In this document: positions 8,362 through 45,691 of the stretch, in pieces
Numbering within the stretch: the stretch's first letter is position 1
How the letters are laid out: each line of letters starts with the position of its first letter
Origin: Longimicrobiales bacterium
GTDB lineage: Bacteria; Gemmatimonadota; Gemmatimonadetes; Longimicrobiales; Gaopeijiaceae
DNA: 64,000 nt
NCBI GenBank assembly: GCA_965249725.1
Contig: CBDFMQ010000002.1
Location: forward strand, 2,272,001-2,336,000
Direction of reading: 5' to 3'
Translations under genes and position numbers: made by a program
Notes under the pieces: generated by a model
Seen by the model: the letters and a program-made list of their open reading frames with translations, nothing else
Database searches by the model: none
Told to the model about the DNA's origin: nothing

Positions 8362-8574
8362 GGTCGTGGATAAGCTCCTGTGTGGTTGTCTTGCGTGTAT
8401 ACACTGCAACTCATCCGGCGCTTCGGCGGCTGCCGACTCCTTCCTCCGACAGCGTTCTCCCCGTGGGAGGCACGCGAACCCCCCGATAGCGAACCGGCCC
8501 GCAAGGCCGGCGAACCTGAGTGGCATATCCAACGGATATGTCTACGAGGGTTCGATGTAGATCACAGGCGAGAG

Positions 8575-8599
8575 CTTGAGTCAGGCGTTACGTGACGTG
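8575..8599. repeat. Cassette-boundary site, right half only (distal end of array 1)
   Basis: GCTTGAGTCAGGCGTTACGTGACGT matches the right end of family-A sites. Confidence 0.6.
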
Positions 8600-8683
8600 A
8601 GTGCGGTCAAGGTACCGCGTCGGGGGCTCAGAGAACCGCGAGCAATCCGTCCAGAGACTCCGCCAGACTGCAGCAATCGCTTC

Positions 8684-9655
8684 TTAGCCGGCCACCTCCC
8701 CTGCGGCGCGGGAATCAACCTCTATTAGGCCAGGTCGCGGATCTCGACGGACTCGCAACTCGAAGACGTCAGGGCGCGAATAGTGCCCCGCTATGTCCAA
8801 CTGCCAGCGAGGTCCGACAAGTTGATCCGGTTCTATATCCGCGTAGAGAATGCCTTCTTCCCCCTCCAGCGGTCCCGCAACGACCTTGCCGTCTGGATCG
8901 ACGATCAGACTGAGGCCTGGATTCAGCCAGCCCTCCAACTCAGCCAAGTACTCGTCCTTGAACGCCAGGTGATCCGGCACATCGTCTTTGTGGAAGGCCT
9001 GGCACGCCGCGATCACGAAGCAGCGCCCTTCTTTCGCCACGTGCCGCATGGTCGAGATCCACGGCTCTCCGCGGTCCCATGTTGGAGCCACGTGAACCTG
9101 CTCTCCCCACGCCGTGAGTGCGTAGCGAGCCAGCGGCATGTAGTTCTCCCAGCACAGGAGTCCGCTGAGGCGTCCGAATGGGAGATCGAACACTTCGAGG
9201 TCACTGCCTGCGGCCTGCCCCCACACTAGCCGCTCACCAGCGGTCGGGATCAGTTTCCGGTGCTTTCCGAGCACGCGTCCGTCCTGGCCCAGGTAGAGCA
9301 GCGTGTTGTAGAGCGTTGAGTCGCTGGCCTCTGAGTTCCTCTCGTTCACCCCAATCGCAACGGTGACACCGCAATCACCGGCGGCGTCAGCCAAAAGGCT
9401 CACCTCGGGCCCAGGAATGGAAACGGAATTGCCGTGGAGCTGAGCGTAGAGCTCCCGGAGGGGGTGCGTCTTTCCCGGCGGGATGAACCAGACCCACAGT
9501 GGATAACCGGGCACGAACGCCTCTGGGAACGCGACGAGCGTAGCCCCCGCGTTTGCGGCGGCCTCGATCAGTTGGCACGCCTTCGCAATCGTGGCGTCCA
9601 AGTCTAAGAACACAGGGGCGGCTTGGACCGCCGAGATTCTGAAGGGTTCCGACAC
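8684..9655 (-). CDS. Nitrilase (carbon-nitrogen hydrolase), cassette gene
   Basis: Glu-Lys-Cys triad: FPEAF, HRKLIPT, LCWEN. Confidence 0.9.
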   Translation of the reverse strand: MSEPFRISAVQAAPVFLDLDATIAKACQLIEAAANAGATLVAFPEAFVPGYPLWVWFIPPGKTHPLRELYAQLHGNSVSIPGPEVSLLADAAGDCGVTVAIGVNERNSEASDSTLYNTLLYLGQDGRVLGKHRKLIPTAGERLVWGQAAGSDLEVFDLPFGRLSGLLCWENYMPLARYALTAWGEQVHVAPTWDRGEPWISTMRHVAKEGRCFVIAACQAFHKDDVPDHLAFKDEYLAELEGWLNPGLSLIVDPDGKVVAGPLEGEEGILYADIEPDQLVGPRWQLDIAGHYSRPDVFELRVRRDPRPGLIEVDSRAAGEVAG

Positions 9656-9718
9656 CGTCCTGGGTCTCCTTCTTCAAGGGTCCGTCCAATCTGTGATTGT
9701 ACTTCGAAAACTCATGTC

Positions 9719-9861
9719 CGATAACGGGCTCACGGACTCAAGACGCGGAGGTGGCGAAGCCACCGGAGTGTCCGCGAAGCGGCCGGCCCGTTGCTCACGT
9801 TAGAGCTTCGCGCTCCAGAGCGACAGCGGACCCAGGGCCATGCGTGAGTCTGGCGTTATCG
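9719..9861. repeat. attC-like site, family A
   Basis: CGATAAC-GGGCTCACGGACTCAAG...GAGTCTGGC-GTTATCG. Confidence 0.85.
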
Positions 9862-10004
9862 GGCGTGAGTGCGGTCGCACCATCACGATCGCGCCAGTGC
9901 GATGCACTCCACCTTGCGCCGACGCCGGTTGAGAGTAGCCCTTCCCCCAGGCCCTCTGATCCGTTATACGTACATTTGGATATCACTCATACGTAGGGGG
10001 ACCT

Positions 10005-10235
10005 GTGGCCAAGACCAAACTCACGTTGTCGGTCGATAAGGCTTTGGTGGTGAAGGCGAAGCAGTTCTCGCAGAGGAACGAGACAACGGTCTCGGAGTTG
10101 GTATCACAGTTTCTGGCGTCGTTGGACGATGACCGTGGGATAGCGGCACCCATTACCTCACGCCTTCGTGGCATATTGCCTTCTAGCGTCGAACGCGAGG
10201 GATACCGCGAACATCTCGAGGAGAAGCACGGGTGA
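10005..10235 (+). CDS. Antitoxin (DUF6364-like)
   Basis: KTKLTLSVD..LV.KAK..S......VSELV; overlaps the PIN gene. Confidence 0.75.
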   Translation: MAKTKLTLSVDKALVVKAKQFSQRNETTVSELVSQFLASLDDDRGIAAPITSRLRGILPSSVEREGYREHLEEKHG

Positions 10236-10648
10236 CGCGGGTGCTACTCGACGTCAACGTGGTGCTCGACGTCTTGGCTGACAGGAAGCCTTTCGCAGAG
10301 GAGGCTACCGCGCTATTCGGCGTGATCGAAGCCGGTGGACTGCACGGCTTCGTGGCGGCCCATACGATCACCACGCTTCACTATCTCCTGGCGAAGCACC
10401 TTGGGAAGGCGAAGACGCGCAGGGTGTTGATGGACCTACTTCAGCTACTCCGAGTGGTGGAGGTAGATGAGGATCGTCTGCGGCATGCGTTGGGACTGAA
10501 TTGGACCGACTTTGAGGATGCCGTGCAGGCAGCCTGCGCGGAGAAGGCGGAGACGGACTATCTCGTAACCCGGGACAAGAAGGGATTCACGCGGTCCGCG
10601 GTGAAGCCGGTAACGCCTGCCGAGTCGTTGGTCCTGATCCAAGAATAG
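10232..10648 (+). CDS. PIN-domain (VapC-like) toxin
   Basis: VLLDVNVVLD...DFEDAVQ...LVTRD. Confidence 0.85.
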   Translation: MTRVLLDVNVVLDVLADRKPFAEEATALFGVIEAGGLHGFVAAHTITTLHYLLAKHLGKAKTRRVLMDLLQLLRVVEVDEDRLRHALGLNWTDFEDAVQAACAEKAETDYLVTRDKKGFTRSAVKPVTPAESLVLIQE

Positions 10649-10691
10649 ACCGAGCTAGCTGATTAGCGTGAGCACCTCCAACATTCATGTC

Positions 10692-10835
10692 CGATAACGG
10701 GCTCACGGACTCACGACGCGGAGGTGGCGGAGCCACCGGAGTGTCCGCGAAGCGGCCGAGCCGCTGGTCATCGTAAGACCCGTCAGCCTACTCGCGAAAG
10801 CGAGCTGAGGCTCGAGCTTGAGTCCGGCGTTATGT
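10692..10835. repeat. attC-like site, family A
   Basis: CGATAAC...CTTGAGTCCGGC-GTTATGT. Confidence 0.85.
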
Positions 10836-11014
10836 GGCGTGAGGGCGGTCACGGCGCCACATGAGCTCGAGTGCAATGCACCCCACTTGCTCTGTCAGAG
10901 TTAGGCGGCCTCCGGTTGAGCGAATCAACAGCCGGCCTCGGCTCACAAAGCACCTGTGATTGAGTCCTCCTCGTCCCACACAAGAACCCCCAAGGGTCGT
11001 CGTGGCGCCAACAC

Positions 11015-11764
11015 CTAGCTTATTAGCGAAAGCCCCCAGGACCTCATCGTGTCCGTGGTGCTAAGTCCTGCCGCCGCACCTACCAGTACGATCAGGCCGA
11101 CAAGACCTCCCAGGAGCACCCAAGGTGGTCGCCGCCGTATGATCCAGTCGCTCCCAATGACCGTGACGACCAAGGCGAGCATCGACAGGGGGAACCACAC
11201 GTCCATTGCGTTTTCGACGCCGGACCGCCGCCAGATGCGATCGATCGCCGGAAAGACGATAGTGATGGACGCCAACAGCATGAAATGCTTATGGATTTGA
11301 GGTGTCCGCCGGTAGTACGCCGCACTCCCCACAAAGATGGTGAATACCAACAGGAAGGCGATGTTCACGCAGAGGTCGAGCACGGCCTCCGCCATGAACG
11401 CCAGTGCCCGTTCAGGGCCCACCAGACCAACGAGGCGATGCGGGATGAACAGAAGTGTCGTAACTGCGCTTGCTACAACGACGGGGATGGCCAAAAGGAG
11501 CCCCGCAGCGCCGAGTCTTCGGTGCAGGTCTGGGCGACGCGACGCGATCAACAGCGTCTGCGTGAAGAACACGACAAACCAGGCCGTGAGAACCCCGCCG
11601 TGTACGTGTATGTAGAGGGGTAGCTCGGGTGTCTCGAAGAAGACCTTGAGAAAGAAGCTTGGTGAGAAGCCGACCAGGACGATCACGAGTAAGACACCGG
11701 CAGTCACCACAAAGAATCGATCGTACAGTTGTGCGCCACCCCACGAGCGTGTTCCGTTGCTCAA
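11015..11764 (-). CDS. Multi-pass membrane protein, cassette gene
   Basis: ~7 hydrophobic segments; HG..LTAW, LHRRLG, HKHFML His motifs. Confidence 0.7.
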   Translation of the reverse strand: MSNGTRSWGGAQLYDRFFVVTAGVLLVIVLVGFSPSFFLKVFFETPELPLYIHVHGGVLTAWFVVFFTQTLLIASRRPDLHRRLGAAGLLLAIPVVVASAVTTLLFIPHRLVGLVGPERALAFMAEAVLDLCVNIAFLLVFTIFVGSAAYYRRTPQIHKHFMLLASITIVFPAIDRIWRRSGVENAMDVWFPLSMLALVVTVIGSDWIIRRRPPWVLLGGLVGLIVLVGAAAGLSTTDTMRSWGLSLIS

Positions 11765-11861
11765 CCTTTGGAGTCCTGTGGCTTCGAGACTTCACACCAC
11801 GGTGTCAGAGTTATTAAGACCGTCTAGCTAAGTTAGTGATTGCACTTCAAAAACTCATGTC

Positions 11862-11975
11862 ATATAACGGGCTCACGGACTCACGACGCGGAGCAGAGCC
11901 ACCGGAGTGTCCGCGAAGCGGCCGAGCCGTTGGTCATCGTAAGACCCGAGCTGCCGGAGCGCGACAGCGCGGAGG
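11862..11975. repeat. attC-like site, family A, right end missing
   Basis: ATATAAC-GGGCTCACGGACTCACG...; no closing GGCGTTA. Confidence 0.7.
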
Positions 11976-12021
11976 CCCTGCATCGAGACGGGATCAGGAC
12001 GGCATCGCTAGGCCATCGGTG

Positions 12022-12642
12022 TCAGTCTTCGCCGCCCGGGGTGGGACGGGCCTGGGATACAAACAACCCCGTCACGCCACCATGTACCAACACCGACAGC
12101 GCGACGTACATACCCGTCGGTCCGCTCTGGGTAATCGCGCCGACAGTGACTGAGGTGAGCAGTCCTGCGGCTACGCCGAGGGTGCTGCCAAGGAGCGCGC
12201 GGCCCGACGAAGGTGTGCCGTTGGCACGACGAGCGCCTGCGTGGGCGCCGATGGCGCCTCCGACCCACCCTCCGACTAGGTAGCCCAATGCTCCCCCAAC
12301 ATCGCAGTCATCGTAGCCGCAATCCGAGGTGAGTGACTGACCGATGAGGTAGCCCAGCGCCACGCCCGTTCCGGAGCCAATCACGCCTCCGAGCACCGCA
12401 GTGCTCCGCAAGCGACCTGAGACGGTGTCCTCCTGTGTCACCCGGGGCAGCCGACTCGGTAAGAGCGATTCACGACTACCCGCGCAGTTCGCCGAAGAGC
12501 CGGGCAGAGGTGTCACGAGCAGCGAGCCCGGTTCCGCCGAGCCCACGCGGGGGTTCGCTGGAGCGTTTCGGTCCAGTGAGCCAGTCGCGCATCCGGCTGC
12601 GAGGACGGCCGCCACAAGAGGTGGGAAACGGCAAGTCAGCAT
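12022..12642 (-). CDS. Gly-rich membrane lipoprotein, cassette gene
   Basis: LAAGC lipobox, glycine-zipper-like hydrophobic helices. Confidence 0.6.
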   Translation of the reverse strand: MLTCRFPPLVAAVLAAGCATGSLDRNAPANPRVGSAEPGSLLVTPLPGSSANCAGSRESLLPSRLPRVTQEDTVSGRLRSTAVLGGVIGSGTGVALGYLIGQSLTSDCGYDDCDVGGALGYLVGGWVGGAIGAHAGARRANGTPSSGRALLGSTLGVAAGLLTSVTVGAITQSGPTGMYVALSVLVHGGVTGLFVSQARPTPGGED

Positions 12643-12726
12643 AGGCCCTCCAAGAACCAACGCGGTCGCTACGACCGATGGCGCTCGTCTTCAATAACTC
12701 GTGATGCTACTGCAAAAACTCATGTC

Positions 12727-12868
12727 ATGTAACGGGCTCACTGACTCACGACGCGGAGTGCCGAAGGCACGGAGTGTCCGCGAAGCGGCCGGCCTGCTGC
12801 TCACGTTAGAGCTTGTAGCCTACCAGCGACAGCGGCTCCGAGGGCCGTGCTTGAGTCAGGCGTTATAG
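12727..12868. repeat. attC-like site, family A
   Basis: ATGTAAC...CTTGAGTCAGGC-GTTATAG. Confidence 0.85.
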
Positions 12869-12881
12869 GACGTGAGTGCGG

Positions 12882-13250
12882 TTACTCCTCGCTCGCTGGT
12901 GTAGCAGGCTCTCTCAGACGTGCGCCGAGAAACCCCCCGAGACACGCGGCTATAAGGCCAGAAGCGAGGAAGGGCAAGTCGTCCCCGAAGAAGGATGCGA
13001 ATTGTCCAGAGGAAATCAGGCCGATCGTGACGAGTAGCAAACCGGGGGCAACTACCCACAACCCCCATCTCCAGGCACCACCCGGCCAGAGGATGCCGGG
13101 AAGTAACCCCGCGGCACCGAAAATGGCCGTTGAAATGAGGATCGCTGTGGCGAAAGACGGCGACTCCAATGGCAGGTTGGCTGGCGCGGCTGCCGCGAGG
13201 AGACCGAGGAGGACGGCGATCACGTAGGCGTAGCGTGGCTGCCGGTTCAT
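12882..13250 (-). CDS. Small membrane protein, cassette gene
   Basis: Four hydrophobic segments; fills the interval between two sites. Confidence 0.65.
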   Translation of the reverse strand: MNRQPRYAYVIAVLLGLLAAAAPANLPLESPSFATAILISTAIFGAAGLLPGILWPGGAWRWGLWVVAPGLLLVTIGLISSGQFASFFGDDLPFLASGLIAACLGGFLGARLREPATPASEE

Positions 13251-13313
13251 TGGGACTTCCTCTGAGATGGTGATCGTCGTCCAACTAGTCGTTTAACTTC
13301 GAAAACTCATGTC

Positions 13314-13457
13314 CGATAACGGGCTCACTGACTCAAGACGCGGAGGTGGCGGAGCCACCGGAGTGTCCGCGAAGCGGCCGGCCCGCTGCTCACGTTAGAG
13401 CTTCCAGCTTCCCCGCGACAGCGGACCCGAGGGCCGTGCGTGAGTCTGGCGTTATGT
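13314..13457. repeat. attC-like site, family A
   Basis: CGATAAC...GAGTCTGGC-GTTATGT. Confidence 0.85.
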
Positions 13458-13622
13458 GGCGTGCGCTTGGTCTCGTGACGAAAACGCCACCAAAATGGTG
13501 CGTCCGCATGGACAAGACGGTGATGGGATCATTGAGACGAAATCAGTAGTAGGACGTCACAGGATACGATGAGCCGTCCAATCCACCTGGATGTCGGCAA
13601 GGTCCGGTAGAGTGAGGTCCCG

Positions 13623-14135
13623 ATGAAGAAGTGGTTGCGGCGCATCCGAGGTGCGGTCGGAATGGGATTGACGTGGGCGGCTGGGTGGGCACCCATAGGA
13701 GCTGTCGTCGGCCTGGTGCTGGGAGTCGTTATGCCCCCGGTTCTCGGCCTTGGTGCAGTCGTCGCACTCAACGCTAAGGCCTTCGCCGCACTGGGCTTCG
13801 TAGGTGGGACGCTCTTTTCGACGGTCCTCCGGCTAGCAGAAGGTCGTCGCAGGTTCGATGAGTTGGCGCTTCCACGATTCGCCGCCTTGGGCGCGCTGGG
13901 GGGCTTTCTGCTAGGAGGGCTCGCAGTCACGCTGGGGATGTGGGGTTCGGGTTTCCAGGCTTTGGGTGTCGCGATCACCGGCATAGCCACCCTACTGGGC
14001 GCGGGCTCTGCGGCCGGTTCGCTTGCGCTCGCGCGAAAGGCTGACCAACACGAGCTGCTCGAGGCCGGTGCCGACGTGGCGGACGTTGGATTGACGGAGG
14101 AGGAGAGGCACCAATTGCTTGAGGGCCCGGCTTAA
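13623..14135 (+). CDS. Membrane protein, inverted cassette gene
   Basis: GAGG RBS, four hydrophobic segments. Confidence 0.7.
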   Translation: MKKWLRRIRGAVGMGLTWAAGWAPIGAVVGLVLGVVMPPVLGLGAVVALNAKAFAALGFVGGTLFSTVLRLAEGRRRFDELALPRFAALGALGGFLLGGLAVTLGMWGSGFQALGVAITGIATLLGAGSAAGSLALARKADQHELLEAGADVADVGLTEEERHQLLEGPA

Positions 14136-14231
14136 CTCTCGCATGAACCGAGTTTCTCGATGGCTCGGGCCCGCAAGCGATGCGCGCGCGCCGGACAGCC
14201 ACTCTGAGTGATCTATGCGGGAGCGCATGTC

Positions 14232-14380
14232 ACATAACGGGCTCACGCGCTCCCGGCGCGGAGTGCGCGCCAGCGAACGGAGTGCCCCGAAGGGACGGGC
14301 CCGTTGGTCTCCACGATAGTGTCACAACAGGTAATGCGCGAAGGCGCACCGGAGGGTCCGGCGGGAGAGCGGCGTTATAC
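14232..14380. repeat. attC-like site, family B
   Basis: ACATAAC-GGGCTCACGCGCTCCCG...CGGGAGAGCGGC-GTTATAC. Confidence 0.85.
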
Positions 14381-14476
14381 GGCGTTCCCGCCCGCCCGCC
14401 TCGAGCAGTCACACGTTGGACGACGCGATCAAGATGCCGCACGCGGTTACGGCACCTGAGGGAAAGCAATCGCCTG

Positions 14477-15067
14477 CTAGACCTCTTCCTGGCCCGAATC
14501 TGCGGGAGTCGGCATCACCTTAAGCCGGGGATCCAAGATCTGTGCGGCGATCCAAAGGTACCAGACGAGAGTTGTCAGGCCATTGGCGATCTGTGCGTAA
14601 GAGCTCGACCTCGGTTGTGCGATACCGCTCTTCCAGTTCCGTAGTGTGGAGGGCTCCACTCCGAGCAGTCGAGCGAGATCACGTTGCGTCACGCACAGCG
14701 TCCGCACTGCATCGGACACGGTCTCCGGAGGAGCCAGACCGGATGTGGAGATCTCCTCGTCTTCGAAGAAGAGAGACCACAGCGGGTCGCCTGTGGTCAT
14801 GCGCTTGAAGCGAAGCCCGACGGCCCAGAAGTAAGCGACCTGACGTTGTCGTAGGCAGAGTTCGGCCAGCTTGCGGCGATAGAAACGACCCACGCTTCCG
14901 GACGAAGACCAGTTTCGGACTGTACCGCGCGAAAGCCCAAGGAACTCGGCGAGTCGAACTTGCGGTATGCAGAGGTCTTGGACGAAGCCCCCAGCCGTCA
15001 TCTCCTCGTAGACACGTTCCGCGTAGAACGTGAAATCAAGCAGCCCGAGGGACTCTAGTTCGGTCAT
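14477..15067 (-). CDS. Protein with two XRE-type HTH motifs, cassette gene
   Basis: QVRLAEFLGLSRGTVRNW and TQRDLARLLGVEPSTLRNWKSG. Confidence 0.7.
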   Translation of the reverse strand: MTELESLGLLDFTFYAERVYEEMTAGGFVQDLCIPQVRLAEFLGLSRGTVRNWSSSGSVGRFYRRKLAELCLRQRQVAYFWAVGLRFKRMTTGDPLWSLFFEDEEISTSGLAPPETVSDAVRTLCVTQRDLARLLGVEPSTLRNWKSGIAQPRSSSYAQIANGLTTLVWYLWIAAQILDPRLKVMPTPADSGQEEV

Positions 15068-15446
15068 GCCTTGGGGTCATCGCCTGTACGTGGCGGACAA
15101 ATCATCATCCAGCCAGGACAGGCAGCTAGGACGGGCGAAATGCGTGGGTTGCCAGGCACCGTGTCCGCGGAAAAGCATGGAACGAAATGGACACATGGCA
15201 ATCTTTTTTTTCAAGAAGGCAAGCAGAATAAGCAACAGCGCTAGCAGCTTGCCAAACGGATCCGGAAGCAGGAGCTCAAGAAGGTCGATGAGCAACGACG
15301 GATCCAGGGCGTGATCCAGGATAAGGGCAGGCATGGCTAATGGACATTATAGCACGCATCAGCTGAGAGACCAAGCCAGAGAACGTGCATCCTGTTACGC
15401 TTCAGGGCCACCAGCTAATCCGCCGACGAACTGACCGCTATCAGGA

Positions 15447-15474
15447 ATGCCGTATAACGGATTTTATACGGCGT
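15447..15474. repeat. 28-bp mini recombination site (11-6-11)
   Basis: ATGCCGTATAA-CGGATT-TTATACGGCGT. Confidence 0.8.
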
Positions 15475-15498
15475 CGTTTCGCCACGCCCTCCGGGACG

Positions 15499-15993
15499 CT
15501 AGCAGGGCGTAGCGAGTAGAGTATTGAATTCCGAACGGAATTCGGGCGAAAACGTGCCCCTCGTGGCGCACCAGCGCGGTTGGTATTGCGGGAAGGTCAT
15601 GAAGCCCCGCCACGCCTCCCGTTGGGCGGCGAACTCAGCCTCGTCGTACAGCCCCCGGCGGTACTGGTAGTGCACGTTCTCGAAGTACCGAAACATCGCC
15701 ATGGTGCGGTGGTTGAGCTGGACGGAATCCGTCGGCGTCAACGCTTCCGCCCTGTTCGCTCGCCTCACCAAGTCGGCCAGTTCAGGGTTTGTGGCGCCGT
15801 CACTCATCAGGTCGACAATCTGGACGGCTATCTCGTTCCTTGTCTGAGCCTCCATCATCTCTCGATTCTGTGCGAGTTCGAACGCCACGAGGAGGATCCC
15901 AGCCAACACACCGACCTCTGTAACGATAGTCAGCCATCGATTCAGTCGATCATGCTTCGGTCGTGACTGGTTCATCGCCGCCCTCGGATTCAA
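15499..15993 (-). CDS. Hypothetical protein with N-terminal TM helix, cassette gene
   Basis: GVLAGILLVAFELAQN...FENVHYQYRRG; fills the cassette. Confidence 0.65.
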   Translation of the reverse strand: MNPRAAMNQSRPKHDRLNRWLTIVTEVGVLAGILLVAFELAQNREMMEAQTRNEIAVQIVDLMSDGATNPELADLVRRANRAEALTPTDSVQLNHRTMAMFRYFENVHYQYRRGLYDEAEFAAQREAWRGFMTFPQYQPRWCATRGTFSPEFRSEFNTLLATPC

Positions 15994-16021
15994 CCGTTGG
16001 TTCTTCCTGCCTGCCGATGCC

Positions 16022-16165
16022 GTATAACGGGCTCACGCGCTCCCGACCGGAGCCGCATCGCGGCGTAGGTCCCGAAGGGACGGGCCCGTTGCCCTTCACG
16101 ATAGTGCCTGTCCGTCCATCCCGCGAAGCGGGTCCGAAGGGCCCGGCGGGAGAGCGGCGTTATAC
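16022..16165. repeat. attC-like site, family B
   Basis: GTATAAC...CGGGAGAGCGGC-GTTATAC. Confidence 0.85.
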
Positions 16166-16257
16166 GATGCGCCGGATCGGTGACTTTAGTCGTCACTCTC
16201 AGTGGCAACCCAACCGGCGCGGGGTTGTAGTATGTCGAAATTGACATAGTTTCCACC

Positions 16258-16596
16258 ATGAGTCCTGACGACAAGCCGATCGTATGGATTGCCGGTGAGG
16301 TGAAGACGCCGCCTTTCTCCGCAGAGGCGAGGATTGAGGTGGGCATGCTGTTGCGACGACTCCAGAGGGGAGATCGTCTCTCGATGCCGCACTCGCGGCC
16401 GATGACTTCAATTGGACGAGGGTGTCATGAACTCCGGGTTGTGGATGAGGGCGCAACGTGGCGCATCGTGTACTTCGTGGACTCGGATGCAGTGGTGATC
16501 CTCGACGTGTTTTCGAAGAAGACGCGGGCGACACCGAAGCGAGTGATGTCGATCTGTCAGGGACGTTTGAGAGACTACAAAGAGGCTAGGCGGTAA
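16258..16596 (+). CDS. RelE/ParE-family (Gp49-like) toxin
   Basis: EVKTPPFS...SMPHSRPM...CHELRV...WRIVY...VFSKKT. Confidence 0.85.
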   Translation: MSPDDKPIVWIAGEVKTPPFSAEARIEVGMLLRRLQRGDRLSMPHSRPMTSIGRGCHELRVVDEGATWRIVYFVDSDAVVILDVFSKKTRATPKRVMSICQGRLRDYKEARR

Positions 16597-16617
16597 GCGC
16601 CCGAGGGAGACGCGAGA

Positions 16618-16950
16618 ATGGACAAGGCCACAAAGAAGAGACTTGAGCGGGCGGGGTGGAGCACCGGTGACGCCAAAGACTTCCTCGAACTCTCAGAGGC
16701 GGAGGCGGCGTTCATCGACATGAAGTTGGCTTTGGCAGAAGACGTCCGAGCTCTGCGCCTAAACAGACACCTGAACCAGACACAGGTAGCGCGAATCCTC
16801 GGATCCAGTCAATCACGGGTCGCGAAGATGGAGGCGGCGGACTCGAGCGTGTCGATCGATCTCCTCATCCGGTCCCTCTTGAAGCTCGGAGCGAAGCGGA
16901 AGGATGTCGCGAAGGCGGTAGCACGGAAGAGGGTTGAGGCAGCAACCTGA
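16618..16950 (+). CDS. XRE-HTH antitoxin
   Basis: QTQVARILGSSQSRVAKME; follows the toxin. Confidence 0.85.
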   Translation: MDKATKKRLERAGWSTGDAKDFLELSEAEAAFIDMKLALAEDVRALRLNRHLNQTQVARILGSSQSRVAKMEAADSSVSIDLLIRSLLKLGAKRKDVAKAVARKRVEAAT

Positions 16951-16975
16951 GCCCTAACGCCAGGTTGAAGTAGGC

Positions 16976-17003
16976 GTGTCGTATAACGGATTTTATGCGA
17001 TGG
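16976..17003. repeat. 28-bp mini recombination site (11-6-11)
   Basis: GTGTCGTATAA-CGGATT-TTATGCGATGG. Confidence 0.8.
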
Positions 17004-17014
17004 AGGCCGGACAC

Positions 17015-17050
17015 TACGCCATTGACGTATGTGCGCCAATGGCGCATAGT
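17015..17050 (+). promoter_or_regulatory. sigma70-type promoter with palindromic operators for the higBA-like pair
   Basis: TTGACG-17 nt-CATAGT overlapped by TACGCCATTGACGTA and TGCGCCAATGGCGCA. Confidence 0.6.
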
Positions 17051-17054
17051 TGTG

Positions 17055-17373
17055 ATGGTCATCAAGGAAACCTCCGTGTTCACGAGGCAAGTCGATAAGC
17101 TGCTCGACAAGGAGTCCTTTCGACTCCTTCAGCTTCGGCTCGTGGAGAACCCTGAGGCAGGAGATCTGATCAGAGGCACCTGGAGGGCTCCGCAAGATCC
17201 GTTGGCAGGGCTCGGGCCGCAGTAAGCGCGGGGGAGTCCGAGTGATCTACTATTGGGCCCGCGAGGATGAAGTCGTTCTCCTCCTTCTCATGTATGGGAA
17301 GAACGAGCCGGGCGACCTCTCTCCCCAACAACGGACGATTCTGAAGCGCTTGGTGGAGGAAGAATTCTCATGA
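17055..17373 (+). pseudogene. HigB/RelE-like toxin with a 1-nt frameshift near 17181
   Basis: MVIKETSVF...NPEAGDLIRGT | GGLRKIRW...KRGGVRVIYY...YGKNE continues in another frame. Confidence 0.8.
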
Positions 17374-17657
17374 ATGACGATCTATTCAATGAACTCGTAG
17401 CGAGTGTTGAGGAGGGCGGAGCCATTCTTCGAGGGGAGAAGGAGGCCTCTCGGACTCACGTCGTCGAGGATCCCGACGTCGCCGCGATTCGAGAGGGGTA
17501 CGGTCTCTCTCAGGCGAAGTTCGCCGCTCTCCTCGGAATCAGCGTGAGGACGCTCCAGAACTGGGAGCAAGGACGTCGCCATCCCCATGGACCCGCGCGA
17601 GTGCTACTTCGAGTTGCCGCTCGCCATCCCCGGGCGGTTCTTGAGACTGTTAAGTAG
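17370..17657 (+). CDS. HigA-like HTH antitoxin
   Basis: GLSQAKFAALLGISVRTLQNWEQGRRHP.GPA. Confidence 0.88.
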   Translation: MNDDLFNELVASVEEGGAILRGEKEASRTHVVEDPDVAAIREGYGLSQAKFAALLGISVRTLQNWEQGRRHPHGPARVLLRVAARHPRAVLETVK

Positions 17658-17691
17658 CGACTCCCACTCGCCACTCGTTCGTACCTCCGTC

Positions 17692-17840
17692 GCATAACGG
17701 GCTCTCGCGCTCCCGGCGCGGGCTGAGCGCCAGCGAACGGAGTGCCCCGAAGGGACGGGCCCGTTGGTCTTCACGATAGTGCCGCACCCGCTAATGCGCG
17801 AAGGCGCGCCGAAGGGTCCGGCGGGAGAGCGGCGTTAGCA
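17692..17840. repeat. attC-like site, family B
   Basis: GCATAAC...GTTAGCA; interior identical to the 18704 site. Confidence 0.88.
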
Positions 17841-17856
17841 GACGTGCCGGTCCATC

Positions 17857-18657
17857 TCACCACCTGTCGGTGCGGAAGGATGATGCTGGAAGCCCAGCGT
17901 TGTTGAAGAGAGAACCGACAATCCAATTCGTCCAGGCGTATCGGACGGCGGTAGGATTCGGAACAGCTTCACTTGAGACACGCAGGTTTCCACCGCCAAC
18001 GATGACGGCTTCGGCGGGATGGAACACCTTGTCTTCACCCGCCACAGTGAAACTGGTCAACTCGCGGCCGAAACTGGATAGGCCGTCGGGTGCGTGGTCG
18101 AACTCCAGGACGGCTGCACCCTCTTCGACCGTGGAGGACGTGCTCGACGTGCCCTTCGGCGCCATTGACAGCTCTTGGGGCGGTACGCCGCATCGACTTC
18201 GGCCAACGCGTTGGACTTCAGCGCTATCGGGCATGCGTTCATCATCGTTGCTGCGCAGGACGGGTTGGCTGGGGTAGCCTCTGAAGGGCATTTGCATGTT
18301 GGACTGGCCAGACATGAGCCAAACTTCACCGACGACGACATCTTGGAATCGAACGGTCTCGGTCGCGTCACCCGTCCGGGCTTGGACGGAGAGCTCACGA
18401 GGCTCAGCGCTGGCCTCGGGAGAATCGAGGCGGATCATCCATCTCCCGTCGGCCGCGGAGGTAGTCGAGTAGGACTGCCCGGCGAAACGCACGGTGACCT
18501 GGGCGCCCGCAGCGGCCCATCCCCAAACAGGATCTGGAGCGCCGCGCTGCAGAACCATATGGTCGGAGAAGATCGATGGGAGACGAAGTTGAGCGGAAGC
18601 AGGGGCCGGAAACAGAAGCGCGGCAAGGACCGATAGATAGGCTACTCGTCGTGGCAT
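17857..18657 (-). pseudogene. Sialate O-acetylesterase with apparent internal deletion
   Basis: N-terminal LPSIFSDHMVLQR and GEVWLMSGQSNM plus C-terminal AVRYAW...GLPASSFRTD are present; the central region appears missing (266 aa). Confidence 0.7.
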
Positions 18658-18703
18658 AGGTGTGCTCCGTCCTAACTCGCCATTGTGAAGCTCAAAGCAT
18701 GTC

Positions 18704-18852
18704 TGCTAACGGGCTCTCGCGCTCCCGGCGCGGGCTGAGCGCCAGCGAACGGAGTGCCCCGAAGGGACGGGCCCGTTGGTCTTCACGATAGTGCCGCACC
18801 CGCTAATGCGCGAAGGCGCGCCGAAGGGTCCGGCGGGAGAGCGGCGTTACGC
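18704..18852. repeat. attC-like site, family B
   Basis: TGCTAAC...GTTACGC. Confidence 0.88.
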
Positions 18853-18865
18853 GGAGTCGCGCACC

Positions 18866-19090
18866 CTAGTGGTGGGCCAGGTTCCGCACGTGGAGAATCT
18901 CGCGGGCCTCAATCGGACGCAGATCAGCGCTCGAAAGAGTGACGACCGCCACCGTTCCACCTTCCCCGGAGACGAATTCGACCTCATAGGAGTCGTCGGC
19001 GTGCCGATGCACAATCGCCCCGACGTCGCCCACCTCGAGTCCGGCATCTGGAAGGTCCCGGCGCAGAACGACCGTATCGAGCTCTTTCAT
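18866..19090 (-). CDS. DUF4926-like small protein
   Basis: ELDTVVLRRDLP..GL..GDVGAIV.......YEVEF. Confidence 0.75.
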   Translation of the reverse strand: MKELDTVVLRRDLPDAGLEVGDVGAIVHRHADDSYEVEFVSGEGGTVAVVTLSSADLRPIEAREILHVRNLAHH

Positions 19091-19094
19091 ACCT

Positions 19095-19296
19095 CTATCT
19101 CCGCGTCGGGTAAGCGGTTACCAGTACAGGGACATCCTCACCCGTGACCATCCATACGGTGCCGAGGGACACGAATCAACACGTCCTGCTGTTTCCAGTC
19201 GCTGGCCAAGTCCTCTTCAGAAATCTCGGACGTGAGCGACGAGACTCGCTCTAGCGCCTGAAGCATGTGGGCCAGAAAGGCCCGGTCACGATTCAT
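19095..19296 (-). pseudogene. Fused remnants: HEPN/DUF86 N-terminus joined to DUF6883-like C-terminus
   Basis: MNRDRAFLAHMLQALER...QQDVLIR (19296 to ~19171), then out-of-frame TVWMVTGEDVPVLVTAYP. Confidence 0.65.
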
Positions 19297-19573
19297 CGAA
19301 GACGACGACGGCCGAGCCGAGAATGGACTCGCGCATGAAGGGGCTGATACCCGGCTCCGTCAGTAGGTCAACCGGGCGCCTGAAGAATCTGGCCAATTCG
19401 TCTTCGGCGCGGATCAACTCGAAATAGCCGATGCCGCTTCCGAAATCCGCGATCAAATCAACGTCGGAATCGGAATGCTCCTCGCCCTTGGCCGCGGACC
19501 CAAACATCCGAAGCCTGACAATGGCATGGCGACGACAACACTCGGCGAGCCGATCTTGATCAAACTGAACCAT
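19286..19573 (-). CDS. MNT minimal nucleotidyltransferase antitoxin
   Basis: FGSAAKGE...SDVDLI...RPVDL. Confidence 0.85.
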   Translation of the reverse strand: MVQFDQDRLAECCRRHAIVRLRMFGSAAKGEEHSDSDVDLIADFGSGIGYFELIRAEDELARFFRRPVDLLTEPGISPFMRESILGSAVVVFDES

Positions 19574-19629
19574 GTCGAAAGGTCTCTCCTAACAACCTCC
19601 AACGTCAATCGGCACCCCTCACAAGTGCT

Positions 19630-19657
19630 TTGTCCGATAACGGATTTTATGTGACGC
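19630..19657. repeat. 28-bp mini recombination site (11-6-11)
   Basis: TTGTCCGATAA-CGGATT-TTATGTGACGC. Confidence 0.8.
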
Positions 19658-19721
19658 GCCGTTGGTGGACCTCATCAATAGCTACGAAACCCCAAAGGAC
19701 CTAAGGCAAATCGCGGTCTGC

Positions 19722-20537
19722 TCAGTCCCAGGCGACCACCTCGACCTCGGTCGGCTCGTCGAACCCCTTGAGACTGATGGAGCCGAGCGAAGTGAACGAG
19801 AGGCCCTTGCCCATGCACAGATCCCGGACGACTCGGGCGGCCAGTATCTGACCTGGCTCGGCGTGATCGCAGATGCGGGATGTGAGGTTGATTGTCGATC
19901 CGAACAATGCGTCGCCGTCGAGAACGGGCTCTCCTGCCCCGATGCCGATCTTCGCCCGCACGGGGATGCCGTCCGCGCCGTCAGAGGCATCCGCAGTCAG
20001 CTTGGCCTGAATCGTCATGGCGCAAGAGACTGCGGCGAAGGCCGACTCGAAGCTCGTCAGGAATCCGTCGCCCGCGCGGTCAACCTCCCGTCCACCGTGC
20101 TCGACTAAAGCTGCTCTCACCGTGTTCCGATAACGTCGCACGACTTCGAGAGCTGCAGCATCACCCAGTGTTCGAGTGATGTCCGTCGAGCGGACCATGT
20201 CGACGAAGAGGATCGCTCGAAAGGCACTCTCTCGAATCGGCTCCGAGTCGACGCTTTCGGGATCGGCGACCCGACCGAGGAAATGCGCGACAGTGGTTGG
20301 GTCGACCTCGATGACTTGGTGGGGAATCAGCCCGTGAGCTTCTCGATGCATCTCCCGGACGGCCTCCGCTGAGGGAGCCTCGACGAGGCAGAAGGCGGCT
20401 CCCCGAGGCTCGTCGTACCAGTAGGTGAGGGCCTTACAGGAGTGTCTGCCCTGCACCTTGACGTCCTGGTGATGGGCCGCCGCCACTTCCTCTGAGGTCA
20501 CGTCCCGAATGTCGTGTCGATCCATGAATAGCGGCAT
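19722..20537 (-). CDS. DUF4242-like domain + class III nucleotide cyclase, first cassette
   Basis: MPLFMDRH...FCLVEAP...HREAHG; ILFVDMVRST, GDGF, GDALFGSTINLTSR. Confidence 0.8.
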   Translation of the reverse strand: MPLFMDRHDIRDVTSEEVAAAHHQDVKVQGRHSCKALTYWYDEPRGAAFCLVEAPSAEAVREMHREAHGLIPHQVIEVDPTTVAHFLGRVADPESVDSEPIRESAFRAILFVDMVRSTDITRTLGDAAALEVVRRYRNTVRAALVEHGGREVDRAGDGFLTSFESAFAAVSCAMTIQAKLTADASDGADGIPVRAKIGIGAGEPVLDGDALFGSTINLTSRICDHAEPGQILAARVVRDLCMGKGLSFTSLGSISLKGFDEPTEVEVVAWD

Positions 20538-20626
20538 GCGTACGTTTCCTTCCGTGGGGTCCGGCCCAATAGGACGAATCGAGGCTCGCTCTGCGCTTCA
20601 CCCGCCAATTGTACTACCCGACAGGC

Positions 20627-20702
20627 GTGTCATGTAACGGGCTCTTCACGAACCATATCAAGTTATCCGCCAAACGGCGACGTCATAACGTCTGACGTCG
20701 CC
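20627..20702. other. Candidate primary (attI-like) site
   Basis: GTGTCATGTAA-CGGGCT not followed by the hairpin body; nearby GTTATCC and a GGCGACGTCA/TGACGTCGCC inverted repeat; lies at the recombinase 3' end. Confidence 0.5.
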
Positions 20703-20761
20703 AAGACGACCACGAGGCGACGCACGTCGCCGCCCCGGTCCCATAGCGATACGCCTACCCA

Positions 20762-21395
20762 CTACTCCTCCCGCAACAGCCTATCTAGCGGGCTCTCTAC
20801 ATCCGTGGCCTCCCGGCGTGCGACGTGCGTATACAGCACGGTCGTCTTGATCTGACTGTGGCCGAGCAACTTCTGGATGTAGCGAAGGTCGGTTCCGGCC
20901 TCGAGGAGATGGGTGGCGAAGGAGTGCCGGAGCACATGAGGGGTGACGGGTCGGTCGATCCCGGCACGTTTGGCGGCGGCCGCCACTTGCCGTTGTACGG
21001 TCCGGGTCGTCAGGTGACGGTCGCGGCGGTGACCGGCCGGGAAGAGCCAGTCGTGAGGCCGTTCTACCGCAGCGTACTCGCGGAGCACCGCCAGCAGCAC
21101 AGCCGAGAGCATCACGTAGCGGTCCTTGCCTCCCTTCCCGTCGCGTACATGGATCATCATCCGATCGGAGTCGATGTCCGAGACCTTGAGGCGTACGACC
21201 TCACCCACACGGAGACCGCTCGCGTAGAGGACGAACGCGATGGCTATCAGTCCGCGCTTCCAGAAAACGCCTGGTGTGGGCCAGATAGAGTCGCTTCGTG
21301 CCGCGGGCGAACCCGCGAAGCGCCATCTCTTCCTTCATCCGAGAGAGCAACTCCTCGGAGTGAGCCGAGCGCCTAGGGTCTTTTGGATGGGGCAT
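20762..21395 (-). pseudogene. Tyrosine recombinase (SAM-like N-terminus + catalytic domain), internally deleted and frameshifted
   Basis: LLSRMKEEMALRGFARGTKRLYL..RRFLE joined out of frame to LYASGLR...GKGGKDR...HVLRHSFATH...LGHS....T..Y...SPLD. Confidence 0.85.
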
Positions 21396-21743: not shown

Positions 21744-21898
21744 CAAGTAACCGGAGTTATTGCGGCCCCACGTGGGGTCCCGAGGCCCCATTCCCACCCC
21801 TAACTCACCGACGCCAAAAAGCCGGAAGCCCAGATCCCTCCTAGACTCCCGGCGAGTGAGCCGGGTGGGTCTCGAACCCACGACCTACGGATTAAAAG
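21744..21898 (-). repeat. att repeat: tRNA-Lys 3' part (21857-21898) plus conserved arm region
   Basis: 42-bp identity to the tRNA; diverged copy of 47566-47678. Confidence 0.85.
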
Positions 21899-42245: not shown

Positions 42246-42282
42246 CCATCTAACCAGCGTATGTGCTGCGACAGCTCATGTC

Positions 42283-42431
42283 CGATAACGGGCTCACGAA
42301 CTCACGACGCGGAGTGAGCGCAGCGAACGCAGTGCCCCGGAGGGGCCGGGCCCGTTGATCTTCACGATAGTGTTACAGCAGCGAATTCGCGAAGGCGCAA
42401 CGCGGGGTCTGGCGGGAGAGCGGCGTCAGGC
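42283..42431. repeat. attC-like site (A/B hybrid), array 2
   Basis: CGATAAC-GGGCTCACGAACTCACG...CGGGAGAGCGGC-GTCAGGC. Confidence 0.8.
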
Positions 42432-43190: not shown

Positions 43191-43222
43191 TTCTTGGTCA
43201 ATTCAGATTTCGAGGCGATGAC

Positions 43223-43439
43223 GTATAAAGGGCTCACGGACTCACGACGCGCAGTGTCCGCGAAGCGGCCGGCCCGTTGCTCATCGTAAGATCAGGGCTG
43301 CCGGAGCGCGACAGCGTGGAGGGACGAGTGCCCACCTGATAGCGGACCGACCCCTAAGGTCGGCGATTGCGAGCCGTGTGACTGAGCCACGCGCGGGAGC
43401 ACTCGTTATCGAGGGCCGCGCTTGAGTCCGGCGTTATAG
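43223..43439. repeat. attC-like site, family A, with internal insertion
   Basis: GTATAAA-GGGCTCACGGACTCACG...CTTGAGTCCGGC-GTTATAG. Confidence 0.75.
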
Positions 43440-45646: not shown

Positions 45647-45691
45647 TGCACGGGGCGTGCGCCGTTCGGGCCTACATGTCCCGGCCCACCC

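Follow-up and report, generated by a model that had tools for sequence, protein, structure and literature searches.

The question raised by this locus is whether a row of integron-like gene cassettes may be headed by a tyrosine recombinase that does not contain the insertion of the integron integrases (IntI). Integrons are defined and searched by this integrase insertion, which is held to enable the handling of folded single-stranded attC. The window, the whole stretch of 64,000 nucleotides analysed here, is read, with a probability of about three in four, as containing a second kind of integron-type platform for gene cassettes, whose recombinase belongs to an insertion-less clade close to IntI and would exchange strands by analogy with integrons.

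The array was found at positions 8566-20665, with its proximal site reaching 20669, and contained 14 boundary sites that divided it into about 13 cassettes (Table 1). By sequence and direct-repeat families, the sites were eight full hairpins, one truncated, one half, three mini and one gene-proximal site; the count of the original prediction was thus reproduced exactly, and its about 13 one- or two-gene units in about 12 kb were borne out. The full sites spanned 136-143 nt from TAAC to GTTA and 142-149 nt with the 7-nt R boxes. The ssDNA folds were found at -37 to -43 kcal/mol in type A and -43 to -49 kcal/mol in type B, one compensatory AU/CG pair was found between the two types, and the R- and L-box columns paired in 87.7% of the cells against 30-46% when the partner was slid. 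A home-made hairpin scanner, in which the TAAC/GTTA cores were obligatory, returned eight sites in this array and eight matches across 12 control regions of 19 kb, seven of the latter falling in two other real clusters. The features of attC, namely imperfect hairpins, R''/R' cores (TAAC/GTTA) and L boxes, were therefore found by folds, box pairing and scanner, and an Rfam search of the array sites matched no family. The mini hairpins contained an 8-bp stem made of both cassette ends and the loop AATCCG in each; their AATCC-GTTA part equals the R'-side spacer of the IntI-type attC of the genome, and their flanks were complementary to the neighbouring cassette ends at 4-6 of 6 positions when read by eye. 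When the eight sites were searched by BLAST in the complete 4.16-Mb genome, the matches merged into 17 places, of which 10 were in the array, four in the second cluster of the window (42262-46621) and three on contig C1. With 14 of 17 places in two clusters, the repeats are not scattered, and a genome-wide spread regardless of genes, which was to count against the prediction, was contradicted. The distal half site was followed by the presence of LicD-like and then cytochrome c peroxidase genes (Pfam).

Table 1. Features located in the window, with strand and basis of assignment
Feature	Position	Strand	Basis
Distal array end, right-half site keeping one arm (GAGTCAGGCGTTAC)	8566-8593	-	repeat family D8
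CN hydrolase cassette	8684-9655	-	ORF list, Pfam
Full type-A attC-like sites (n=4)	9719-9861, 10692-10835, 12727-12868, 13314-13457	-	repeat families D3-D8, ssDNA folds, scanner matches
DUF6364 + PIN	10005-10648	+	ORF list, Pfam
Three predicted proteins without family	11015-11764, 12022-12660, 12882-13250	-	ORF list, Pfam
Site with right arm truncated	11857-11975	-	repeat families D3-D8
ORF cassette	13623-14135	+	ORF list
Full type-B attC-like sites (n=4)	14232-14380, 16022-16165, 17692-17840, 18704-18852	-	repeat families D1, D2, D6; folds; scanner
HTH protein + small ORF	14477-15334	-	ORF list, Pfam
Mini hairpin boundaries (n=3)	15450-15471, 16979-17000, 19632-19655	-	sequence
ORF cassettes	15499-15993, 17857-18657	-	ORF list
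Gp49/HigB-like + HTH	16258-16950	+	ORF list, Pfam
Broken RelE-like ORF + MqsA-like HTH	16995-17657	+	ORF list, Pfam
DUF4926 cassette	18866-19090	-	ORF list, Pfam
MNT-type nucleotidyltransferase	19286-19573	-	ORF list, Pfam
SCO4226-like + cyclase	19722-20537	-	ORF list, Pfam
Gene-proximal site	20629-20669	-	sequence
attI-like region, recombinase stop codon to first cassette	20629-20761	-	sequence
Pseudogene, Xer/IntI-like tyrosine recombinase, insertion-less clade	20762-21350	-	tblastn with three intact homologues
Copy of tRNA-Lys(TTT) 3' 40 nt + about 115 nt downstream flank	21745-21895	-	ARAGORN, Rfam, pairwise alignment
Second mosaic cluster, same site family	42283-46623	-	BLAST, sequence, scanner, Pfam
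Second-cluster site, R' degenerate (GTCA)	42283-42431	-	sequence
Second-cluster site, R'' degenerate, about 75-nt insert	43222-43440	-	sequence
Second-cluster junction-like half site	45088-45110	-	sequence
L'-R' half of IntI-type attC, orientation opposite to cluster sites	45236-45267		scanner listing
31-nt hairpin of the DUF6616 cassette that follows the IntI-type half site	45699-45733		scanner, Pfam
Second-cluster site	46478-46623	-	sequence

The cassette region (8684-20537) was found to contain a GC of 0.57-0.65 across the array (about 60%), and immunity-type cargo was not found in the array by Pfam. Toxin-antitoxin-like pairs were found among the plus-strand units.

The ends of the cassettes were compared over 21 recombinase-linked arrays with 166 sites, taking the 6 nt after the GTTA of one site and the 6 nt before the next TAAC. 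Adjacent sites were complementary at a mean of 4.77 of 6 positions, and 104 of the 142 pairs reached 5 or more; the means were 3.02 for the same site, 2.95 for other pairs and 2.85 for reversed neighbours. Eight bona fide IntI arrays from the same bacterial order gave 4.60 versus 2.80. The array of the window contained at least 5 of 6 complementary positions in eight of its 12 assessable cassettes, as read from the sequence. Duplicated cassettes in the recombinase-linked arrays were bounded from GTTA to GTTA in at least nine cases, as in the IntI arrays, and none of those duplicated was bounded from TAAC to TAAC. The structure of an integron cassette, in which the first bases pair with the own R'' and a crossover in R' is implied, was therefore found here.

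The attI-like junction was found to contain GAGCCC|GTTACATGAC, reading GTCATGTAAC at 20629-20638 on the plus strand, about 125 nt past the recombinase stop codon in this window, and in the attI-like region a GTTA was surrounded by a perfect inverted repeat of 10 bp (20676-20702). Five relatives (G002, G058, G040, G060 and G050) contained the equivalent junction roughly 100-230 nt past the stop codon. Between the GTTA plus 6 nt of the junction and the R'' of the first attC, complementarity extended to 10 of 10 positions in these five relatives and to 7 of 10 here.

The protein of the recombinase reads ...LREYAAVERPHDWLFP... and was found at the head of the array with its stop codon at 20762-20764 of the minus strand. 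Its C-terminal catalytic part (20768-21244) was contained in one frame and an N-terminal remnant (21243-21350) in another; a deletion had removed about 81 codons from the core-binding domain, and a frameshift was present, and residues 82-117 and 199-357 of a 70%-identical homologue were matched by tblastn in two frames. This breakage is an addition to what had been predicted for the locus. The recombinase was matched by Pfam Phage_integrase (143.6 bits) and contiguously by NCBIfam XerA_Arch (168.5 bits), followed by TIGR02249 at 163.7 bits (cut-off 265) in two pieces with the profile positions 179-230 skipped, so that the additional domain specific for IntI (intI_Cterm, or TIGR02249 above the cut-off) was not found in the local recombinase. 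The best solved relative by sequence was archaeal XerA (4A8E, 154.7 bits), and IntI4 (2A3V) was matched at 135.1 bits in two pieces. An insertion of about 31 aa and one of about 9 aa were present in all six IntI shown in the alignment and absent from the local protein and 25 homologues. The original prediction of an array that stops where a tyrosine recombinase gene lacking the IntI insertion has its 3' end agrees with the TIGR02249 gap and this alignment, which contradicts a catalytic domain aligning to IntI with the insertion; the predicted co-orientation also stands, the gene and the sites being on the minus strand. The same broken state of the gene was found in contigs of four runs from four studies, the break being bridged with 0-1 other letters. 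The recombinase is a pseudogene, in the same state across four studies, and so cannot run the local array now. The contigs of the four runs break at the array repeats with ambiguous joints, and recombination products, circles and polymorphic cassettes were not observed.

The linkage of the clade to arrays was assessed at 40 loci of the same order, among which 24 contained at least 4.7 kb downstream and the contig ended within 2.7 kb of the gene in the other 16; kin genomes are not independent. Of the assessable loci, 18 were found to contain 3-17 hairpin sites just downstream, two contained one and four contained none. This amounts to 139 downstream sites, against one in all the 4-kb upstream flanks of the 40 loci. 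The expected flanking of intact homologues by arrays was thus found, and further array-linked loci outside this set were present in G002, G058, G060, G050 and G040; the subclade of G377, G345, G281 and G018 was apparently not array-linked. Ten array carriers were without IntI, two of them single contigs: TIGR02249 was not matched over the cut-off in G058, G060, G050 and G040, nor in G118, G138, G161, G269 and G100, and G395 contained no IntI match at E<=1e-45. In G118, a single contig without IntI, the two cassettes next to the gene were 100% identical over 383 nt.

An intact canonical IntI was found in the genome of the window (C3:1028977-1029906; TIGR02249 335 bits against the cut-off of 265), where it heads its own array, and this nearest match above the cut-off is 1.26 Mb from the array. 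The array might be an ordinary CALIN, assembled and kept up in trans by the canonical IntI, the recombinase remnant being a bystander, e.g. the integrase of an element entering at tRNA-Lys. Such an origin is unlikely, even if several points speak for it. Besides the intact IntI of this genome, a canonical IntI that may act in trans was present in 11 of 18 genomes with arrays from the order sample; the genome of the window holds several further recombinase-less site clusters; and IntI recognises structure more than sequence, according to the part of Cury et al. 2016 consulted (PMC4889954). The tRNA-Lys copy is directly upstream of the pseudogene and was about 90% identical over about 160 nt, by pairwise alignment, to the intact tRNA with the same flank at 47560-47751. 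The second cluster contained an IntI-type half attC, by which the two site pools are not fully sealed. Against this origin stand the recurrence of the linkage at 18 of the 24 assessable loci, where the array was 3' of the gene every time, the ten carriers without IntI, and G002, in which the same layout occupies another part of the chromosome with no tRNA beside it. The site families also differ, the attC family of the canonical IntI being other than that of the window, and among seven genomes with both systems 54 recombinase-array and 49 IntI-array sites contained no common sequence family, with lengths of mostly 126-161 nt in the recombinase arrays versus about 94-116 nt beside IntI. The proviso that a canonical intI elsewhere might explain the array thus held for the presence of the enzyme and not for its sites.

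In the trees, the clade was separate from IntI (support 100), from the IS91-linked recombinases (97) and from Xer (100), as predicted for a non-IntI recombinase clade. The IS91-linked recombinases were apart also in a 161-row FastTree (0.963), in which the Bacteroidota homologues formed a separate clade of 20 rows (0.938) and IntI was placed within a clade (0.954) whose other rows were insertion-less and array-linked. The branching order of the clade subgroups and IntI was weakly supported (0.297 in FastTree, an open fork in the other tree). The two Xer-like genes of the genome (C3:888 kb and 422 kb) branched apart with a support of 100, by which orthology to XerC/XerD was rejected.

The nearness of the clade to IntI and this unsettled order would fit a clade of degenerate IntI descendants that lost both insertion and activity, with arrays that are relics of an earlier true IntI, as would the same gene-attI-array layout in the IntI of the order (at least three sites downstream in 8 of 12 loci). 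This descent is more doubtful still than maintenance in trans. Most clade members were found to contain stop-free open frames, and the catalytic R, K, H, R, H and Y columns were invariant in 14 intact members. The clade is also wide: at E<=1e-70, with IS91-type matches counted in, 124 of 401 genomes of the order were matched, or about a quarter to a third of them, with a single copy of the gene per genome. The identical tandem cassettes of the IntI-less G118 and the private site families also speak against relics. That the repeats are MITE- or REP-like palindromes inserted between genes, as their long, imperfectly palindromic and intergenic nature might suggest, is already contradicted, with hardly any probability left, by their clustering in two places, by the own-site flanks pairing at 3.02 of 6 against 4.77 for the ends of the segments between sites, and by duplicated units that consist of an ORF and one site.

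The integron-type platform of a second kind is therefore preferred, and comparison of the sequences shows its anatomy, end complementarity, GTTA-bounded duplicates, gene-array linkage including IntI-less genomes and separate site families. On the minus strand, the recombinase gene is followed by an attI-like site, no more than about 130 nt past the stop codon, and by the co-oriented cassette row, each cassette containing an ORF or a toxin-antitoxin pair and then a 142-149-nt imperfect hairpin with TAAC...GTTA cores. By analogy with integrons, strand exchange by the enzyme would take place in the 3' (R') box, at G|TTA, circular cassettes would be inserted at the attI-like site and excised between two hairpin sites, and folded single strands would be the most likely substrate. 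Points against this reading include the local pseudogene, the co-resident IntI, the four assessable loci without downstream sites, and the published accounts of the insertion and of recombinases lacking it that are cited below. The original prediction of a cassette system run by a non-IntI clade is supported at the level of the family, where intact members are co-oriented with and directly upstream of arrays, also in genomes without IntI; in its original wording it is not supported for this window with its pseudogene. Since the local gene is dead, this array probably amounts to a frozen store, unless it is acted on now and then by the distant IntI.

A wider proposal, for which the odds are put slightly below even, is that the insertion-less array-heading recombinases are sister or ancestral to the integron integrases and, although they have no I2 helix, recombine attC-like hairpins in the folded state, and that two orthogonal integron systems with private site families run in many cells of the order. 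The IntI insertion would then be a later refinement and not the founding invention of integrons, and a part of the present CALIN would be a second integron class. The arrays headed by the clade show all the sequence hallmarks of integron cassettes, and a canonical integron that uses different sites is often present alongside. Should the enzymes be active, the need for the insertion could be tested directly with natural proteins, the origin of integrons could be studied in a lineage keeping both forms, and a large pool of orphan-cluster cassettes would gain an owner. The window alone is more modest, being a genuine, probably frozen array with a dead integrase.

Among known systems, the IS91-family ORF1 tyrosine recombinase was found to share about 54% identity in the catalytic domain, and the same bacterial family contains IS91-family members (G011, seven copies of a 2.5-kb unit). 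A Y2 transposase was not matched by tblastn at the local locus, nor downstream in 17 of the 19 clade loci checked; with no Y2 (HUH) transposase downstream, one clade copy in the genome and a separate clade, an IS91-family element was rejected.

The rAID-1 (recombinase-associated acquired interbacterial defence) of Bacteroidales contains a 5' XerD-like recombinase and integron-like intergenic repeats, a structure described there as suggesting that genes are actively acquired (Ross et al., bioRxiv 10.1101/471110, as far as its available text goes). Its definition there comprises at least 44% identity to B. fragilis BF9343_RS08045, at least two co-directional downstream genes with GC <= 41%, and immunity cargo; hairpin or crossover analysis was not found in that portion of the account. 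The array resembles rAID-1 in the recombinase heading an integron-like array and in co-direction, and differs in the phylum, in a GC of about 60% and in the lack of immunity-type cargo; at 0.57-0.65 against <= 41%, membership was rejected. Given rAID-1, as that text describes it, the recombinase-headed integron-like layout is not wholly new in print.

CALIN are clusters of attC sites lacking an integron-integrase, in the consulted part of Cury et al. 2016 (PMC4889954), where only 50 PF00589 proteins without intI_Cterm were found close to attC, none of them with three or more sites, and were dismissed with the verdict that they "are not IntI". At least two sites with no IntI within 4 kb were found here, provided that the sites count as attC, and the array would qualify by the IntegronFinder definition if the attC model recognises them; it differs from CALIN in the conserved clade-specific recombinase gene at its head. 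The I2 helix of the insertion is held by experiments to have allowed the recombination of single-strand attC, as stated in the portion seen of a further account (eLife PMC7790495).

Compared with the IntI arrays of the same genomes, the sites here are longer and share no family with them. The sedentary chromosomal integrons with the 'inverted integrase' layout, in which IntI is co-oriented with the cassettes, have in common with this array the order of gene, attI-like junction and cassettes, the cores of RYYYAAC/GTTRRRY type and the imperfect hairpin ending each cassette. The first bases of their cassettes are likewise complementary to the own R'', and toxin-antitoxin pairs and small uncharacterised proteins are likewise abundant in their cargo; the difference is the insertion-less recombinase found here, with TIGR02249 at 164 versus 265 bits.

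The array of the window was found to contain 14 boundary sites by repeat search and direct reading, and the count of the original prediction was thereby confirmed. In the single-stranded DNA fold, every full site was found to form a long imperfect hairpin with ATAACG/CGTTAT as the closing pair. The named R- and L-box pairs were formed in 87.7% of the cells (13 sites from three genomes of the genus) against 30-46% when the partner was slid, and one R/L-box pair was found to change from AU to CG between the site types A and B. In RNAalifold on the window sites (13 sites; columns 84-97 with 136-154 of the site alignment A2), an internal CAACGGGCC(C/G)G was paired with the R'-side GAGCCCGTT, with five compensatory pairs, which suggests an alternative hairpin, or a nested one, inside each site. 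The Rfam gathering scan of the window matched tRNA-Lys solely and no attC-type family. By BLAST of the whole genome, 17 places were found to match the sites, ten in the array, four in the second cluster and three on contig C1; the repeats are thus grouped and not scattered genome-wide.

The cargo was found to be unrelated between the units and contained a CN hydrolase, a PIN pair, a HigB/HTH pair, an MNT-type nucleotidyltransferase, a cyclase, DUF4926 and family-less small proteins. Ten units were on the minus strand and four on the plus strand, with toxin-antitoxin-like pairs among the latter. A RelE-like reading frame, split in the window, was found to contain an extra A in the contigs of three of four public runs, and other samples may carry an intact form of this toxin gene. 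A LicD-family gene of low GC directly past the distal truncated site may be a one-time cassette.

Coordinates of the features in the window and elsewhere (plain positions are those of the window, G000:C3:2272001-2336000)
Feature	Position	Strand	Remarks
Cassette array	8566-20669		14 boundary sites
Full sites, type A	9719-13457		142-149 nt; n=8 with type B
Full sites, type B	14232-18852		142-149 nt
Site with truncated right arm	11857-11975		
Half site	8566-8593		
Mini hairpins	15450, 16979, 19632		22 nt; n=3
Gene-proximal site	20629-20669		
LicD-family gene	7465-8532		GC 0.55
RelE-like ORF, split	16995-17225 + 17170-17331		extra A at 17193
Recombinase stop codon	20762-20764	minus	
Recombinase, homologue residues 82-117	21350-21243	minus	
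Recombinase, homologue residues 199-357	21244-20768	minus	
Direct repeat	21745-21895 and 47560-47751		about 160 nt
Second cluster	42262-46621		
Canonical IntI of the source genome	G000:C3:1028977-1029906		335 bits; open frame of 382 aa
Third site family	G000:C3:2827911-2834179		six hairpin sites; another copy at C3:1937869
Broken canonical IntI	G001:C10:8979-9854		stop + frameshift
IS91-family unit	G011:C1 (L055 3004-5497; L059 6724-10097)		2.5 kb; 7 copies

A distance of about 125 nt was found between the end of the array and the stop codon of a tyrosine recombinase gene. This recombinase has a catalytic domain that is intact in sequence, but its gene was broken, with intact homologues aligning in two frames and about 81 codons missing. 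Four runs from as many studies have contigs that span the point with 0-1 differences, so the break is genuine and is fixed in the sampled population. The recombinase had been described as lacking the IntI insertion, and this was upheld by alignment, in which the insertion (about 31 + about 9 residues) was carried by 6/6 IntI and by none among the window protein and 25 homologues. The integron-integrase profile TIGR02249 (cut-off 265 bits) matched the window protein at 163.7 bits in two pieces, skipping profile positions 179-230, and the XerA_Arch model matched it in a single piece at 168.5 bits. The best solved relatives, by sequence, of an intact same-genus homologue were the archaeal XerA 4A8E (154.7 bits) followed by IntI4 2A3V (135.1 bits, in two pieces). 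A clade profile search found no second copy of the clade in the source genome and, since the enzyme is dead, the array is probably frozen, with rare help from IntI being possible.

A direct repeat of about 90% identity, starting at GTAACCGGAG, was also found in the window, and it contained the 3' 40 nt of tRNA-Lys(TTT) followed by about 115 nt of downstream flank. Its copies enclose 25.8 kb with core-like genes (a sigma-70 factor, MoaA, a BlaR1-like protein and a cysteine synthase-rhodanese fusion) and the second site cluster. After each copy, one gene followed by a site cluster was found on the minus strand.

Homologues linked to such arrays were found in the same genus and elsewhere in the order. 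The same-genus genome G002 contained an intact homologue (63% identity) at a different chromosomal location, which was followed by a half site, one compact site of 44 nt and sites of the window type. Four genomes of another family of the order had the gene with an array behind it, namely G058 (12-13 sites), G060 (8), G050 (5) and G040 (2 before the contig end); no TIGR02249 match over the cut-off was found in these four genomes, and their best matches were the clade genes, in two pieces. Of 401 genomes of the order, 124 were matched by a profile of 14 clade members at E<=1e-70, mostly once per genome and with the IS91 type included. Forty clade loci were fetched, chosen solely for the flank promised by their coordinates and with contig-end matches excluded. 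Sites were called where TAAC and GTTA lay 30-200 nt apart with a DNA folding energy <= -0.17 kcal/nt, the ends being forced to pair, by a scanner that is GC-tuned and blind to AT-rich sites. Among the 24 loci with at least 4.7 kb downstream, 3-17 sites were found in 18, one site in two and none in four; this makes 139 sites downstream of the gene against one in all 4-kb upstream flanks combined. The contigs of the other 16 stop within 2.7 kb past the gene, as expected if repeats come after it. On 12 control regions of 19 kb the scanner gave eight hits, seven of them within two regions that are clusters themselves. An earlier version, in which the minimum free energy fold must pair the ends, was dropped as too strict for other site families (2/13 sites in locus L066).

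The homologues of G011 and G034 (54-57% identity) were rejected as array recombinases, being ORF1 of a multicopy IS91-family element with a Y2 transposase. The G011 unit contained a 284-aa tyrosine recombinase and a 402-aa Y2 transposase, and one copy begins about 9 nt past the end of a 5'-truncated IntI, the expected attI location in integrons of the order. An N-terminal extension with the motif PGRxWxPxxRxWxxP was found in many clade members (N-terminal 30 columns of the clade alignment A1; loci L017, L018, L020-L026 and L028) and was absent from the subclade of the window (G002, G009a, G035) and from several other array-linked members. A HARP-like domain was rejected for this end, the Pfam HARP model matching weakly in 1/17 proteins (E=0.0043).

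For comparison, 12 bona fide IntI loci of the same order were fetched, with at least three sites downstream in eight and a total of two sites upstream over the 12 loci. By three sequence tests, to which the IntI arrays gave the same answer, the recombinase-linked arrays are true cassette arrays. The six bases that follow GTTA in one site were compared with the six that precede TAAC in the next, and the mean number of complementary pairs of 6 was 4.77 for adjacent sites (IntI 4.60), 3.02 within the same site (2.80), 2.95 for other pairs in the array (2.82) and 2.85 for reversed neighbours (2.90). At least 5/6 complementarity was found in 104/142 adjacent pairs of the recombinase-linked arrays; in the window, 8/12 assessable cassettes reached 5 or 6 of 6, with 15/17 in one case (13449 vs 14227). 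Duplicated cassettes were found to run from GTTA to GTTA of the next site in at least nine cases and from TAAC to TAAC in none; the unit is therefore an ORF together with the site downstream of it, as seen in the orientation of the recombinase gene, and the crossover would be in the 3' box, like that of integrons. The first two cassettes of G118 were 100% identical over 383 nt. The first cassette was found to join about 100-230 nt past the stop codon at GTTA + six bases, and this junction was complementary to R'' of the first site at 10/10 bases in G002, G058, G040, G060 and G050 and at 7/10 in the window. An arm-asymmetry measure had the same sign in 130/139 recombinase-array and 53/55 IntI-array sites, a measure that confounds the central spacer with extrahelical bases and is not usable for strand choice.

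That a canonical intI elsewhere explains the arrays was found to be half right: the source genome does contain one, its single TIGR02249 match over the cut-off, but the array of this gene uses a different site family. Four classical attC sites were found 3' of it, with 94 nt from TAAC to GTTA (TCTAACGGATTGCGATT...AATCGCTTGTTAGGC); the first-cassette junction expected beside it was looked for and not found. BLAST clustering of 54 recombinase-array and 49 IntI-array sites from seven genomes (G215, G295, G371, G172, G106, G330 and the source genome G000) gave no family in both. Genome-wide, the scanner found eight clusters in G000, and the six assignable ones were the IntI array, three more of the IntI-type site, the window array and a six-site cluster of a third family (148 nt, ATAACGTTCAGGGCCTCCGAACC...), near which no recombinase match was found. 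The second cluster of the window contained the L'-R' half of an IntI-type site, and AATCC-GTTA was common to the three mini sites and the IntI-type sites; the two site pools are therefore not fully sealed.

In the order sample, 18 genomes bear arrays; 11 of them were found to have a TIGR02249 match above the cut-off elsewhere in the genome, and G131 has broken pieces only. No match was found at E<=1e-45 in the other six (G100, G138, G118, G395, G161, G269) and, at E<=1e-10, none over the cut-off in five of these (all but G395); G138 and G118 are single contigs. With G058, G060, G050 and G040, ten carriers without IntI were found (G395 at E<=1e-45 only). The same-genus genome G001 contained window-type sites (at least 10 BLAST matches), a broken canonical IntI and no clade recombinase at E<=1e-70; its arrays have outlasted both enzymes.

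In a quick IQ-TREE search of 39 rows, IntI (13 rows, 100), the IS91-linked rows (5 rows, 97), Xer (100) and an 18-row clade (SH-aLRT 91) were each found on one side of a branch. The six rows then known to be array-linked all fell in the 18-row clade, and within it the window protein grouped with G015, G009a, G002 and G035 (99). In FastTree with 161 rows, IntI (30 rows, support 1.0) was found inside a 0.954 clade whose remainder was insertion-less array-linked rows, the order of its three subgroups having a support of only 0.297; the subclade of G377, G345, G281 and G018 appears to have no arrays. The row L151 was oddly placed and may be a frame-extraction error; the genome behind the IntI row G037 is unpublished, and no conclusion rests on that row. 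Against 185,579 species genomes, the clade alignment matched 79 mixed loci, of which about 30 were IS91-linked, with Bacteroidota, CPR and archaeal relatives and a few true IntI, whose upstream arrays of 10, 7 and 7 sites were positive controls. By repeat search, clear downstream arrays were found in 3/10 Bacteroidota or other loci.

This anatomy is best read as a platform of the integron type whose enzyme is an IntI relative without the insertion. From the anatomy and the comparison, cassettes would be inserted at an attI-like site just 3' of the gene and excised between hairpin sites, with a putative crossover between G and TTA of GTTA. The array is present in seven public runs from four studies, always on contigs that break off at the repeats, and no recombination product was seen in them; joints such as 11975>8565, with sides of 30-33 letters at repeats, were rejected as evidence of circles or rearrangements. 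The interest is clear at the level of the recombinase family and modest for the window alone.

The I2 helix of the insertion has been argued to have enabled single-strand recombination (PMC7790495, PMC4792948), and recombinases near attC without the insertion, 50 cases, were dismissed by Cury et al. 2016 (PMC4889954). Within the integron-like subgroup of Smyshlyaev et al. 2021, the insertion 'is not fully conserved' (PMC8138268). No account of attC arrays headed by insertion-less recombinases in Gemmatimonadota was found in the literature search. The rAID-1 element of Bacteroidales, for which the accessible text gives no site or crossover analysis, was reported in 226/423 genomes to contain a 5' XerD-like recombinase followed by co-directional genes with integron-like intergenic repeats, and a comparable layout is thus already published for that order (10.1101/471110; PMC12247911).
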